Virus record (IMG/VR): IMGVR_UViG_2718218104_000006
Source: a virus
Lineage: Duplodnaviria > Heunggongvirae > Uroviricota > Caudoviricetes
Length of the DNA stretch: 58,725 nucleotides
Direction: 5' to 3' (one strand)
Below, one piece after another: positions 45,001-51,000 of this stretch. Made by a program: the position numbers. Position 1 is the stretch's first letter; each line of letters starts with the position of its first letter.

Positions 45001-48000
45001 GTTCCCATTCCGCCCTGACCATGACCAATCAGATGATGAGGATCGTCCGCTGGCTTACCACAACACGCACACGGCTGTGTCTTTACCCAGCGTGTGTATT
45101 TCTCATTTACCCAGCGGCGACGTTTAGGTCGTTTCATGAAGGATTCCGGAGACTCCGGATCAACGGCAATGCTGACCACCGTCTTTTCCTGTGGTGGGTT
45201 TTGCTGGTGGGCGTGAGGCAGCGGCGCAAGATTTTTTGTGCGCTGCTTCAGTATGATGGTGGCGGTCTGCTCTCCCGGTACGATGTCGCTTTCACGGTAC
45301 ATTGAGCGGATTTTTTCCGCACGCAACCCCAGCGAACGACGTAATACCGCTTCCGGTAGCGCGTCCGCCACCTGATTGCGGACCGCCCACCAGGATAATT
45401 CAGCCAGAGATAATTCACGCTCCTGCGTACCGCTTATTGCGTGACCGATGACGTCAATCATCCATGCTGACAGGTTTTGATGAGCAAGTTGCTCGAGTGA
45501 TTCGGATGTCTGGTCACGCAGCTGGTTGTCGCAGTGCCAGCACAACACCATTGCGCCGGTACCATAACGGTGAATAACGGTTTCACTGTGATGATAGTCA
45601 CCATGAGGCCACTGGCAGGATTTGACATGACGCAACAGCCAGTCAGACAGTGCACCAGCGCCACCAACAGCACGAATCACACGCTCATTGCTGAAAAACG
45701 GCAGTAATGATTTATCCTCCGCCAGCGGCTGGCGAACGGCAGGGACGATGCCGGACGGCAGACCGCGCATGCTTTTCGGCTCCGGCTCCACAAGCACTCG
45801 AGGGTTATGGAATACCTGCATGGATTCACGGCCTGGTTTAAGGACCACCACCCCAAGTTCCGGTACCGGAACAGGTCGAAGTAATACCCGCACGTTACCT
45901 CCAGATGCGTTGCTGGAATGTGCGGGACGGACGCGGTGGGCGCTCGGAGTACGGCAGCCTGACGTAGATTATCCAGTGACGATAATCGAGGCTGAGGGCT
46001 TTCCTAAACTCATACCCACGTCTGCGGTAGTTCTGAATCAGCCATTCGGCCTGTTCTTCAGTGCATGGGGCGTGCCGGAACCAGTCAGATTTGAATGCAT
46101 GAGAACGCCGCCCGTGCCTGCTGGCAAAGACGGCTGAATTATCAGAATTGTGTAGTCTGGAATTTTGCGCCATCGGCTTTCTCCGGTGGCACAGTGTTAC
46201 TCAACAGGGGTTCAGCCCTGCGCTGAATTGTAGATGAATTCACTAATCTTCAAAAGCAGAAAAACCAGCCTTAATCCCAGCTTCTTTCAGAGACGGCAAC
46301 GATGTGACAAATTCATTTGCACGCAAAATAAAACCATCCGTCACAAGCCCATCCACAAAATGAATTAACGCAGCTCCACTCTTCCTTTGTTGAGACTGTA
46401 AACATTTAATACGGCAGTGGCTGACAATAGCGCCCTTCTCAACGCGCACAGTATAGAGGCCATCTTCACTAAAAATTTCACGTAATTCTTCGATTCTCAT
46501 CAACAGAATCCTTCCAGATAAATAGCACTCCCCTGTTCGGGGTCCATCCCTCTTCTCCCTGCGCGCTACTTAAGTATTTTTGATTCTATTCCGGCGCCGT
46601 CCGGAACTTCAAACGCGTTGAAAATAAAAACAAAAACCCGCCGAAGCGGGTTAAGTGCGGGTGCGTTGAGGATGCCTGACACATCAGAGGTGGCGAGGGA
46701 TTTCTCCCCCGCCTGGTCTCTTACTCCTCAGGTTCGTAAGCTGTGAAGACAGCGACCTCCGTCTGGCCGGTTCGGATTCGTACCTCGCAGAGGTCTTTCC
46801 TCGTTACCAGTGCCGTCACTATGACGATTAAACAGATGACGATCAGGGCGATTAACATCGCCTTTTGCTGCTTCATAGCCTGCTTCTCCTTGACCTTTCG
46901 GTCCGTAAGAGGCAATCTATATGTGACGAGCATATAGGGGCCTCACTTCGATTTATAGTCGGGTGGGGCTTTTATCTATCTGCCGTTGGTGTTCATGCCC
47001 GAGGCAGATAGCCTCAAGCACCCGCAGCAATCCTACTTAACTCTGCCGTTACAGCAAACCGTTTTCGCCCGATATGGGAATTCCCATATCGGAATGAATT
47101 CAGTTCACCTGGCGAGGCTTAGCGTACAATTTTTTCCGTTTTGTGAGCTGCCCCTACATGCCGCTGGCGCGGCATCCGGAAAAAGAATCCACGTCCTGAA
47201 GGACGAGGATGTCAAGTGCCTTTCCTGGTCCAGCCATATTTTTTGAATGCAGGCGCCGCTTCATCGGTTTGTAGCCATTCTGCAAATCGACGGGTTTCAT
47301 CATTTGCATCCTGACGTACTGTAATGTTCATATCACGCCATATCACGTAGTCTGGCGCTATTTCCACGACATCACCAATTTCTGGATTACTGGCTGCCCA
47401 GTCAGCCCAGGTTATCCAGACATCTGCTCCAGGCTGATTCTCAAGAGCCTTACGTGCAGTTCCGCTATTGGGCGCATATAAAATAATATTTTTTCGGATT
47501 GCGGCGACAGTTTCTATATTCCCTTTACGTCCGGCAATATCTTCCCAGACGCCAGTGCCTGATGTATTACTGGTACCACCACCATCATTAACAATTACGC
47601 CAATCCCAGGTCTGGTCAGGTCGTCAATACTCCGGATATTTTTAGGATTACCTTTCTTTACCAGTAAAATACTTTTTCGCAGATAAAGAGGCTGAATATC
47701 TTTTTCACTGAAGCTGTCTTTATGGTCCCGAATGATAGCCAGAGCAGATTGTTCTGATGCGCCAAACAAGATATCTGCATTTTTTTTGGCATCTTCATTC
47801 CATTTGTTCTGTGGGCCGTAATGAACGTTCACTATAATACCTGTTTTTTCGGCATAAAGTTTGGCTGCATCAAGCAAGGCTGTATGCGGGCCACCAGGAC
47901 CATACAGATTGATATCAGCATAAGCAGCAGAAGACAGGAATATTAAAAAACCTGCCATTATGTTCCTCATAAAAAACTCCTTTTATTGGTTATCATGAAA

Positions 48001-51000
48001 TAAAGTTATAAACACTACAAATAATATATATTACATCCAGATAAACTTATCCGACTTTACCTCGTGCATAGCTTGTTATTTAAAGTCAACAAAATAAGGA
48101 AAATTATACGCATATTGAAGAGTATAAACCTTACATGTTGATTACATTTTTGTAATCAACATCCTGTTTGGAATAGCCAGCCTTTAATGGATAACTATTT
48201 CTGACAATGCAATGAGTATAATCAAGTCCATCTTCCACTGAGAATTAGAGGCGGCATGCTTTTTCCGGCTCTTGCCGGATATCCGTAATTGTCCATAATC
48301 TGCAGATTTATACCTTCTGCATGACCTGTCAGCGAAAATTTGTCCGGTGTTTCTACGGGAATGACATCAAAAGTTACACGCACTCGCGTTACCGTGTAGA
48401 CCTACTTTCCTGCACTTGCAAGATCACAGTGGTGTAACCGTAACAGGAATTTATTCTCTGGACCGGCAGTAAATCCCTGAGTGGCGTGGTTCCCATATCA
48501 ATTTCCCGCCAGGCAGCCTCCATTGCCAGCGTACAGGCTGGAGCCATGACCTGCCCTTTAAATCTGGCCCGACCATCCCACCGGACGTGTTCTTCTCCCC
48601 TGAACTTAGGTACAGTCATCTCCAGTGGCACAAAAGTGTCAGCGCCATAATTTTTGACCGTTATCGCGCTACGGATATTTTGTTGACTGGTGAAAATCAC
48701 CCCGCAGAATCAGGCTTATTCCCTTAACCTGGGCTTTCATCCTGACCGCCGCCTCACTACGACCAATCAGACTGCCGATGCATTTTACCTTCATTGTTAG
48801 TATCATGATTTCAGGCCTGCACCATCCGCTCATTGCCCGGACTTCCGACAAATCCCGGCAACCATATCCCGGTGCTTGTTCAGCTCCCGCAGCGCGGCGC
48901 AGACTCGCTCCCACTTCTGGACATGATTCTTCGCCCTACGCAGTTCGCGATTTGCCATATGCAGCGATGGCAAAATCAAATCATCTTCTCGCGTTGCAGT
49001 AAACGATGGCAGCGACTGCACAATGTCCGCCACAGTTTCTGTTTTAATATCTTCCTGTGTTGCATCTTTCTGTACCGGTAACGCAACACCGGCTGGCTGA
49101 GGAAAGGCTTTACCATCGGTTTCCGCTACCGATTCAACTTTCGGCTCTGCTGGTAAATTATCACCTGGTATGCAGTAACGAATTTTACCGTTCTGGTTTA
49201 CGCGAATCAGACGACCTTTGCTGATTGCCATTGCCAGCGTTGAAGCAACTTTGCGGGATGTTGTACCGAACAGCGTAGCCAGTTCATCCGCCGTTTGTGG
49301 TCCGCGTTGTTCAATCGTCGCGGTTAAATCGCACTCTGAGATTTTCGCTTCTGTTGCCGTGGTGGTTTCTTCTGGCGCTGGCTGTTCCTGCTGAACGTTG
49401 TTATCAGCCACACGCCAGGTGTATACGCTTTTATCAACGAAGCCAGCCTTTTTCAGTTCCCACAGCTCGTTCAGTACTTCTTCACGACTGATATCAAGTC
49501 GCGCAGCCAGCTATACCGACGTGGCTTTTCCCATCGCTTTCAGTGCGTCAAAAACAGTCTCCATAAATTTCCTCCCGGTAAAAAATCACTTCTCAACTCA
49601 AACAAAACCAGCCGCTTTCCGGCGTTCATATTCCTGTTTCAGCAACTCAATTGGCGTTGGCCCCGACGGGCGTTTGGGGGCCGCCAGTTGTCGCCGGACT
49701 GGCGGAACGCTCAGGCCGTTACTAACATGCTTTGCCCATTTCGTCAGTTGCCGTTCTGCAAGCCGTTTTAATTCCCCTTCGGTCATCTGGCGCTCAATCC
49801 CCTTTGAACGCATCTCGAGGCAAATGTGATACAGCACAGGCTGAGACCACGGGTACTTATCACTTCCGTCGTATCGCCAGGACTCATTGCGCCAGCGGCG
49901 GTACTCCTCCATCACAGCATCCACCGTCAGACCGAATGGATTGGCTCCGCTTTTCGAAATCAGTGCCACAAACTCAGCCAGGTCCGGAGGCCATGTTTCA
50001 CCCGCCCGGCAGCGGTCCATGCACTGGCGGCAGACCTGCCGGATTTGCTGCTCAGTCATCGCGCCAATCTGTGCAATCCAGAGCTTCGAAGGTGCGGCCC
50101 CGTTCTTCTGGATCCAGCGGTTCGAATAAACCACCCCCATGAGTTCCCACAGCTTCCAGGCCGTTTCCGTCGCTGATAAATCCGTTTTCACGTTCCCACT
50201 GCTCACGTGCTGCCCGAATTTCCTGAACTGCCCGTGATGCGGTGCCACCTGGTGCTGCTGCATGGTTTACCCCTTTGCTGACTGGTTTAACCTGCGCCCT
50301 GACGTGATTTACGTGACGGGCGAATTTCTGCTCCCACTGAATCTGCGTAAACACTTTCCCCTCCGCTGCCCAGTAGTCCCGGAAGGCGGCAAGTTCAGCA
50401 GGTGTAAATTCTGTCTCCGGCAAAGCCATCCCCCACAACGCAGCCCGTCGTCGAAAATCCCGTGACGGATACCAGCTATCGCTCATCGGGAATTTTCCGA
50501 TGGGTTCGCTCAGGCCATACAGGAATACAGGGGGGGCTGCCTGTAACGACAAAACTTCCTGCTCACTGGTCGGAGCACTCTCGCGTGCGTTATGTGTGGG
50601 GTTTAGATCTTTGGGTTCCTTTGGGTTCCGTGATCCGTTTTTGGGTGTCTTTGATGGAAAATTTGGGTGTCTTTGGTTATTTTCCATGCAGCTAAGAGTT
50701 CTGTTTTTGGGTCTGTTTTGTGCTGAAACATAACCATTTTCGGTACTGTTTTTATTAACAGCACCAATTTTACCCACCTTTAAAGACTCCCGTTTTTGGG
50801 TGTATTCAGGCTCGGCAACACTTTCTTCTACACCGATAAGTCGGTACACCACAATTTGCTTTGTTCTGCCTTTTCTCTCACCGGTATCAACAATTAACCC
50901 AATCTCCATCAGGTGTCGTAAGCTGTCCTGCACAGTCTTTTTGTTCAGTTCCGTTACTTCTGCCAGTGCAGATACAGACGGGTATGCACACAAATCGGCA

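Follow-up and report, generated by a model that had tools for sequence, protein, structure and literature searches.

The closest described relatives of the protein considered here are PEB3 of Campylobacter jejuni and AcfC of Vibrio cholerae, and the closest described gene is paa (also named adfO) of enterohaemorrhagic Escherichia coli (EHEC). PEB3 (PDB 2hxw, 3fir, 3fjg and 3fj7) is a full-length homologue of the same length as Paa and, like Paa, a stand-alone exported binding protein that has been described as an adhesin; it is encoded on the chromosome under BumSR control (PMC12469816), whereas Paa is encoded on a phage or plasmid. AcfC (PDB 4jb7) is, like Paa, periplasmic and a horizontally acquired colonisation factor within a pathogenicity element, but its gene immediately follows acfB, which encodes a chemoreceptor, and paa has no such neighbour. 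AcfC binds sulfated glycans and mucin and acts on mucin chemotaxis rather than on adhesion (PMC5976639). In EHEC, adfO is gene z2053 of O-island 57 of strain EDL933, where a hok-like gene, ckf, always co-occurs with it (PMC8565820), and ECs1772, the ‘Paa’ of strain Sakai, is located in prophage Sp9 (PMC2323221). Here, we describe paa and the DNA on either side of it in a 58,725-nucleotide stretch from a virus of the class Caudoviricetes (IMG/VR record IMGVR_UViG_2718218104_000006), referred to as the window, which means this whole stretch at its full length. The locus is very probably the known paa/adfO moron of a lambdoid EHEC prophage of the Sp9/CP-933O (O-island 57) type, with a flank consisting of capture debris. 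The gene itself is not new and has been named and studied since 1999-2003.

The paa gene, its protein family and its slot in the prophage

Calling open reading frames (ORFs) on the window places paa at 47212-47970 on the minus strand, with a product of 252 amino acids, exactly as given in the initial annotation. Many chromosomes of E. coli O157:H7 and other EHEC match a 2.3-kb query over 46900-49200 with 100% identity, EDL933 among them, and at least 80% of the query is present in 573 of 5426 complete E. coli genomes. In the identical genomes, RefSeq names the gene ‘paa: AcfC family adhesin Paa’ (WP_001449026.1) and gives the order hokD, paa, a fimbrial pseudogene, a 54-amino-acid hypothetical protein, DUF1627 and replication protein P; records of PPompW phages label the product ‘porcine attaching-effacing associated protein Paa/adherence factor AdfO’. 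With 100% DNA identity and the same neighbours (hok/ckf, the fimbrial pseudogene and DUF1627), together with the Pfam and PDB matches described below and the published accounts (PMC8565820, PMC2323221), the gene shows no difference of substance from paa/adfO of EHEC O-island 57, and what is added here is a base-level dissection of its flanks.

The Pfam family SBP_bac_11 (PF13531) matches Paa over positions 1-226 of the 227 in the profile (E 5.5e-34). The N-terminus, MRNIMAGFLIFLSSAAYA followed by DINLYG, reads by eye as a Sec-type signal peptide, with a hydrophobic core and an AxA site (AYA), and the lipobox cysteine is missing, which points to a non-lipoprotein; the earlier description of a binding-fold protein bearing a signal peptide therefore stands. 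The mature protein, of about 26 kDa, has an N-terminus, ADxNLYGPGGPH, that aligns with those of PEB3 and AcfC. When Paa is compared with the PDB (phmmer), it matches PEB3 over residues 11-248 (E 1.2e-81) and AcfC over residues 16-248 (E 3.5e-81), both with solved structures, at 54% and 52% identity, respectively. The motifs YGPGGPH, ILFGAS, SNTSGT(G/A)VWED, PNSGxARK and WITWxDW are invariant in Paa, PEB3, AcfC and the plasmid and Escherichia albertii copies, so that the PEB3 pocket motifs SNTSGTGVWED and PNSG-ARK are kept in Paa. In the PEB3 structures, these residues are reported to line the anion pocket. The PEB3 segment DFNVS, presumably the N-glycosylation site of that protein, is replaced by DSFSEK in Paa. 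Paa is thus, by its sequence, an exported binding protein of the PEB3/AcfC/Paa family.

The initial annotation had called the protein ‘ModA-like’ and had offered a metal or oxyanion scavenger as its possible role. On Paa, the modA model TIGR01256 reaches 18.3 bits in a match limited to residues 212-246, well short of its cut-off of 62.5, and PRK10677 reaches 11.7 bits against 253; the Sbp/CysP models PRK10752 (22.6 against 288 bits) and TIGR00971 (21.5 against 155.5 bits) yield local matches of about 45 residues. Because the modA and sulfate-binding cut-offs are missed by such wide margins, ‘ModA-like’ applies at the level of the fold only, and the PEB3/AcfC/Paa family describes the protein better than a metal or oxyanion scavenger does; homology to binding proteins as such held on search, with full-length matches to PF13531, PEB3 and AcfC. 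A ModA- or Sbp-like oxyanion scavenger that feeds molybdate, sulfate or phosphate to a chromosomal ATP-binding cassette (ABC) transporter would share the SBP_bac_11 fold superfamily with Paa, and would fit its weak local similarity to sulfate-binding proteins (local PDB matches only, at E about 1e-4, with 1sbp at E 3.5e-4; best NCBIfam match E 6e-5). We nevertheless consider this role quite unlikely, given the failed cut-offs, the E values of 1e-81 for PEB3 and AcfC against 1e-4 for sulfate-binding proteins, published phenotypes that concern adherence and chemotaxis and not nutrient uptake (PMC8565820, PMC5976639), and the missing transporter genes.

In the RefSeq annotation, no ABC permease or ATPase is found within 6 kb on either side of paa, in agreement with the earlier remark that the gene is encoded without a transporter partner. 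Relatives of the Paa family were fetched from other genomes and ORFs were called around 17 of them; 20 flanking proteins from 14 taxa were scanned with Pfam, and none is an ABC permease or ATPase. Standing alone without an ABC partner is thus a trait of the PEB3/AcfC/Paa family and not unusual. The V. cholerae gene directly follows acfB, which encodes a methyl-accepting chemotaxis protein, a relative from Campylobacterales adjoins a histidine kinase and a response regulator, one from Methylopila adjoins a histidine kinase, and one from Endozoicomonas adjoins an extracytoplasmic function (ECF) sigma factor and a zf-HC2 anti-sigma factor, so that genes of the family repeatedly lie directly downstream of signalling genes. 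The Burkholderia relative has an SLAC1-type anion channel as a neighbour, the Winogradskyella relative a PF03601 membrane protein and a LysR regulator, and many relatives have housekeeping neighbours, IleRS, DnaA, catalase and Era among them. That signalling genes recur beside members of the family hints at a sensory role without proving it.

The early-right operon of the lambdoid prophage runs on the minus strand of the window, and paa sits in it between replication protein P/DUF1627 on one side and hokD, DUF968, RusA and a DUF1133 Q-like antiterminator on the other; all of these genes, as well as cro, are on the same strand as paa, and the placement of the gene in the early and nin region was correctly called. 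In Rac/Sp9-type relatives without paa (the Rac-type phage MN652886 and prophages L015, L016 and L018), unrelated small genes lie between DUF1627 (ydaW) and hok/sok, and homology to phage Rac 442/2 breaks at window positions 47040 and 48861. Since paa-less relatives hold other genes in this slot and homology to Rac 442/2 is broken on both sides, paa is non-phage cargo, a moron in a variable slot of the early-right/nin region. The local drop in GC content and the terminator at the stop codon, both described below, also speak for a moron. Lysogenic-conversion cargo had been suggested from the outset, and the suggestion is supported by the variability of the slot and by published adherence and uninduced transcription (PMC8565820, PMC2241611, PMC8524897).

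The paa unit, its flanks and the origin of the cassette

The prophage has in common with F-type (IncF) plasmids not only the paa coding sequence but the whole interval from 47152 to 48164/48174, with homology ending sharply on both sides. As judged from these bounds, paa is part of a mobile unit of about 1 kb, in which the coding sequence is preceded by about 195 bp of AT-rich DNA and followed by a terminator and a second hairpin. The plasmid homologues are 85-89% identical to paa in nucleotide and 92-93% in protein sequence, and some come from strains resembling enterotoxigenic E. coli (ETEC).

The upstream region (47971-48171, minus strand), which we presume to be the promoter and regulatory region, is 75-89% identical to the F-type plasmid copies. 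GC content is 28-30% over approximately 47900-48200 and returns to 44-54% by 48200-48600, so that the AT-rich stretch of about 400 bp reported earlier is real but shorter, about 250-300 bp. The region holds TATAAT at 48103-48108, which is conserved with the plasmid copies, and at its outer edge lies an 11-bp inverted repeat (48135-48162; -15.2 kcal/mol, z = -3.7). A Shine-Dalgarno sequence, AGGAG, can be read at 47977-47981 on the minus strand, 6 nt before the ATG at 47970, and the stretch containing it, AAAAGGAG, is kept in plasmid paa copies. At the other end of the gene, an intrinsic terminator (47180-47213, minus strand) comprises a hairpin at 47185-47213, beginning at the stop codon, and a U-run at 47180-47184; the 76-nt 3' region of paa folds at -29.7 kcal/mol (z = -3.0), a terminator-like site is also called there, and the plasmid copies have kept the hairpin. 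A second GC-rich hairpin, AUGCCGC-GCCA-GCGGCAU (47158-47175, minus strand), forms the downstream end of the plasmid-shared unit, and homology stops just after it.

The IncF plasmid copies, annotated as ‘substrate-binding domain-containing protein’ in ETEC and other E. coli, have the same unit, including the AT-rich region and the 3' hairpins, but differ in their flanks, which carry fragments of the insertion sequences IS1 and IS3 and of Tn3, lie next to an STa enterotoxin gene or repA, and lack the papH relic described below. On plasmids pCFS3246-1 and p1RM10740, the paa homologue lies amid IS1, IS3 and Tn3-family fragments, and these two plasmids share about 35 bp of another sequence right after the 3' hairpin of the paa unit; on one IncF plasmid, the homologue is about 2 kb from an IS1-flanked STa enterotoxin gene. 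Chromosomal paa of E. albertii was considered as a further holder of the AT-rich upstream unit and rejected, its homology being to the coding sequence alone.

The DNA immediately upstream of the paa unit (48172-48636, minus strand) is what remains of a minor pilin gene of the papH/pixH type. PapH/PixH is the terminator or anchor subunit of the P pilus; intact PapH/PixH-like pilins have 195 amino acids, and their genes stand between those for the major pilin and the usher. Three-frame translation of the flank suggested a fimbrial subunit split over the frames, and a stitched reconstruction of 165 amino acids matches 195-amino-acid PapH/PixH-like pilins at 79% identity (E 6e-71). This match, obtained by phmmer against a large protein database, was the only means by which the relic was recognised: Pfam and NCBIfam scans of the flank ORFs (103, 53, 35 and 81 amino acids) were empty, as was the Pfam scan of the reconstruction. 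DNA alignment with two intact pilin genes confines the homology to 48172-48636 and shows that the relic has lost about 70 nt from its 5' end, including the start codon and signal peptide, and a further 38 nt or so, coding for the C-terminal residues, from its 3' end. Within the relic there are a 10-bp deletion (48469/48470) and a 5-bp deletion (48235/48236), both frameshifting, and a CAG-to-TAG change at 48402-48404. Substitutions relative to the intact gene are distributed 18:14:27 over codon positions 1, 2 and 3, a flat pattern as expected once constraint is lost. RefSeq annotates the relic as ‘fimbrial protein, frameshifted; internal stop’. Intact homologues are found between major pilin and usher in operons of the papB-papA-papH-papC-papD-papJ type, or on Rep3 plasmids; near the relic, the RefSeq annotation contains no usher, chaperone or other pilus gene. 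The region 48172-48636 is therefore a dead pilin pseudogene fragment. The decayed gene that had been surmised in this flank is thus accounted for, and the 103-amino-acid ORF noted at 48389-48700 is present but constitutes just one frame of the frameshifted pseudogene.

Beyond the relic, 32 bp of filler (48637-48668) have no homology to intact papH loci or to the adjoining phage gene. This gene, a truncated ‘DNA-binding protein’ gene of 54 codons (48669-48833, minus strand), is 69-75% identical to the N-terminal half only of a 93-amino-acid DNA-binding protein, whose gene follows DUF1627/ydaW in related prophages, and it was cut by the insertion at the point where the cargo starts, leaving the N-terminal 52 codons of the phage gene. 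A different parentage for the 54-amino-acid ORF, as a truncated LygF (the gene after ydaW in Rac 442/2), was rejected, tblastn having found no similarity.

On the downstream side, the cargo ends in a solitary stub of a Tn3-family transposon end (47108-47154, minus strand), composed of a 37-nt inverted repeat at 47118-47154 and about 10 nt of the 3' end of tnpA. On plasmid pMB06101, the counterpart of 47108-47154 covers the 3' end of a gene annotated as a Tn3-family transposase and continues past it. The terminal inverted repeat reads GGGGCAGCTCACAAAACGGAAAAAATTGTACGCTAAG on the minus strand; it is typical of the Tn3 family, whose terminal repeats of about 38 bp (GGGG...TAAG) overlap the tnpA 3' end, and presumably resembles the inverted repeats of Tn21 and Tn1721. 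No second copy of the repeat occurs in the window with up to 3 mismatches allowed, and of a complete Tn3 element, with a second repeat, transposase and resolvase, about 10 nt of tnpA are left beside this one repeat. Alignment to a paa-less prophage places the breakpoint between phage and cargo within a 9-bp microhomology, CC(T/A)GGCGA, at 47108-47116.

A small RNA had also been suggested for this flank. At Rfam gathering thresholds, the only match near the locus is sok (46874-47023), and no RNA family is matched in 47100-48830; an E-value scan of 46500-49000 adds only isrK (E 0.011) and rsmX (E 0.59), both within 46631-46717, outside the flank and at the level of chance. It is accordingly highly improbable that the flank from 47971 to 48830 is the source of a functional small RNA or protein, such as the 103-amino-acid ORF or the 54-amino-acid remnant. 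At least 98% identity across about 574 genomes, an inverted repeat (48135-48162) that folds better than shuffled sequences and a promoter-like site at 48244-48215 count in favour of such a product, but recent common descent of the whole prophage segment explains the conservation, the 103-amino-acid ORF is a single frame of a pilin gene that has lost both ends and carries two frameshifts and a stop, substitutions in the relic are spread almost evenly over codon positions, the 54-amino-acid ORF is the front half of a 93-amino-acid protein, and Rfam, Pfam and NCBIfam return no family for any of the fragments.

How the pieces came together can be approached from their distribution. A query over the paa/papH junction divides the E. 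coli matches into three classes, namely the full cassette (574 genomes, at least 98% identity), papH only and paa only, and the break between paa-side and papH-side matches always falls at 48172-48174, with no intermediate. Queries over the other junctions return the same approximately 573-577 genomes, and the carriers include O157:H7, O55:H7, O145:H28, O111, O103:H2 and other lineages. The recurrence of the same junctions in the same genomes and the clean split into three classes point to a single origin of the cassette, and we infer that the mosaic arose once and then spread with the prophage. In the proposed model, plasmid or island DNA that had already been rearranged by transposons would have been captured once, by illegitimate recombination, from a donor that was probably plasmid-like; the pilin fragment upstream, the Tn3 end downstream and the cut phage gene would be the scar left by the arrival of the cargo, and the flanking DNA would have no function of its own. 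Against this model, an intact donor with papH, paa and the Tn3 end together was not found in any collection searched, and when an intact papH-paa ancestor was sought, matches fell into the full cassette, the paa side only or the papH side only. One further location of the cassette is NZ_CP031350.1, a 187-kb record labelled as a plasmid of E. coli O145 strain RM9154-C1, which contains the whole cassette (DUF1627, relic and paa) at 99.9% identity; it could be a phage-plasmid, a prophage integrated on a plasmid or an assembly artefact.

Expression and function of Paa

We infer that paa has its own promoter in the upstream region, which travels with the gene on plasmids, and published expression is consistent with this: ECs1772 is growth-phase regulated in uninduced Sakai (PMC2241611), and contents of the bovine rumen and rectum induce paa (PMC8524897). 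Two observations weigh against an own promoter. A sigma-70 scan yields no consensus promoter in the AT-rich region (47971-48171), and the only minus-strand promoter-like site upstream of paa (48244-48215) lies inside the pilin relic. With the scan empty, the argument for independent transcription rests on the published expression together with the plasmid-conserved upstream region. The opposite reading, in which the prophage copy of paa lacks its own promoter and depends entirely on early-right read-through for its expression, would agree with the empty scan, with the co-orientation of paa with cro, O/P and DUF1627, and with the lack of a strong terminator between DUF1627 and paa. It is nonetheless improbable, as the upstream 195 bp accompany paa on plasmids that lack the phage context, the gene is regulated in uninduced cells and induced by gut contents as cited above, and the uninduced lysogen has an adherence phenotype (PMC8565820).

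As for function, Paa is exported by its predicted Sec signal peptide and is a two-lobed class-II binding protein, with a ligand cleft probably lined by the invariant Ser/Thr/Gly-rich motifs. Judging from its solved relatives, it would bind a small anionic ligand, such as sulfate, sulfated glycans or phosphorylated C3 acids. It works without a dedicated ABC transporter, as is normal for the family, and would aid colonisation either directly at the surface or via signalling. Published mutant work shows a contribution of the gene to adherence and colonisation; according to the review PMC8565820, which cites Ho 2008 and Batisson 2003, an adfO mutant shows reduced adherence to HeLa cells and a lower secretion of several proteins. 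Two points weigh against this reading: an AcfC mutant shows no adhesion defect, so that a direct role as an adhesin is disputed for the family (PMC5976639), and the ligand classes reported for the two solved relatives differ, phosphorylated acids in one case and sulfated glycans in the other.

Paa might instead be primarily a sensory binding protein that docks on a chemoreceptor or sensor kinase, as proposed for AcfC and AcfB, with its effect on adherence being indirect. Relatives that adjoin the chemoreceptor gene acfB, a histidine kinase with its response regulator, a further histidine kinase or an ECF sigma/anti-sigma pair fit such a role, as do the effect of AcfC on mucin chemotaxis and not on adhesion (PMC5976639) and the altered secretion of several other proteins in the adfO mutant (PMC8565820). 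The neighbourhoods are, however, heterogeneous, with many relatives beside IleRS, DnaA, catalase or Era, and no signalling gene adjoins paa in the prophage; we therefore regard a primarily sensory Paa as possible but rather unlikely. Equally tentative is the extension of this idea to the whole Paa/AcfC/PEB3 family, whose members would then be neither adhesins nor parts of transporters but free periplasmic sensors docking on chemoreceptors or kinases; the only new support for it from the present analysis is the presence of chemoreceptor, two-component and ECF genes, and never ABC genes, as neighbours in distant taxa.

Other features of the prophage and significance of the cassette

Directly downstream of the paa cassette, and outside the cargo, is a complete mok/hok toxin gene with its sok antisense RNA (46721-47023, minus strand; Pfam HOK_GEF, E 1.7e-21; Rfam sok, RF01794, 46874-47023, 103.9 bits). 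This mok/hok-sok locus is the ‘ckf’ marker that is reported to accompany adfO in O-island 57 (PMC8565820). Just upstream of hok/sok lies a perfect 24-bp palindrome, CCGATATGGGAATTCCCATATCGG (47069-47092; -22.1 kcal/mol, z = -5.4), with no U-run after it; the palindrome was considered as a boundary of the cargo and rejected, since it belongs to the phage backbone and is also present in paa-less prophages.

Elsewhere in the window, back-to-back Rfam matches to AgvB (anti-GcvB; plus strand, 56.6 bits against a cut-off of 56) and STnc100 (minus strand, 175 bits) occupy 41630-41899, near the phage tRNA genes. These are two genes at 42009-42241, called by ARAGORN as tRNA-Arg(tct) and tRNA-Met(cat). 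In the identical O157 region, which was not mapped base-for-base to the window, RefSeq annotates a tRNA-Ile beside tRNA-Arg, and the CAT tRNA is therefore probably a lysidine-modified isoleucine tRNA. At 37910-38842, an ALIL frameshift pseudoknot (Rfam RF01497, 121.5 bits) adjoins a 296-amino-acid ORF, which together indicate an IS3-family insertion of the IS629/IS1203 type in the late region of the prophage; in strain PV15-279, another copy of an element of this type interrupts the replication genes.

The flank of paa calls for no new RNA or gene and is recombination debris, part of which RefSeq had already flagged. The cassette has spread with Sp9-type prophages and is now found in roughly one in ten complete E. 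coli genomes, and paa/adfO is a long-established virulence marker of EHEC, enteropathogenic E. coli and ETEC, which together with hok/ckf types O-island 57. Should the sensory reading of the family be true, the prophage-borne paa would rewire the sensing of sulfated mucin or phosphometabolites by EHEC in the gut.

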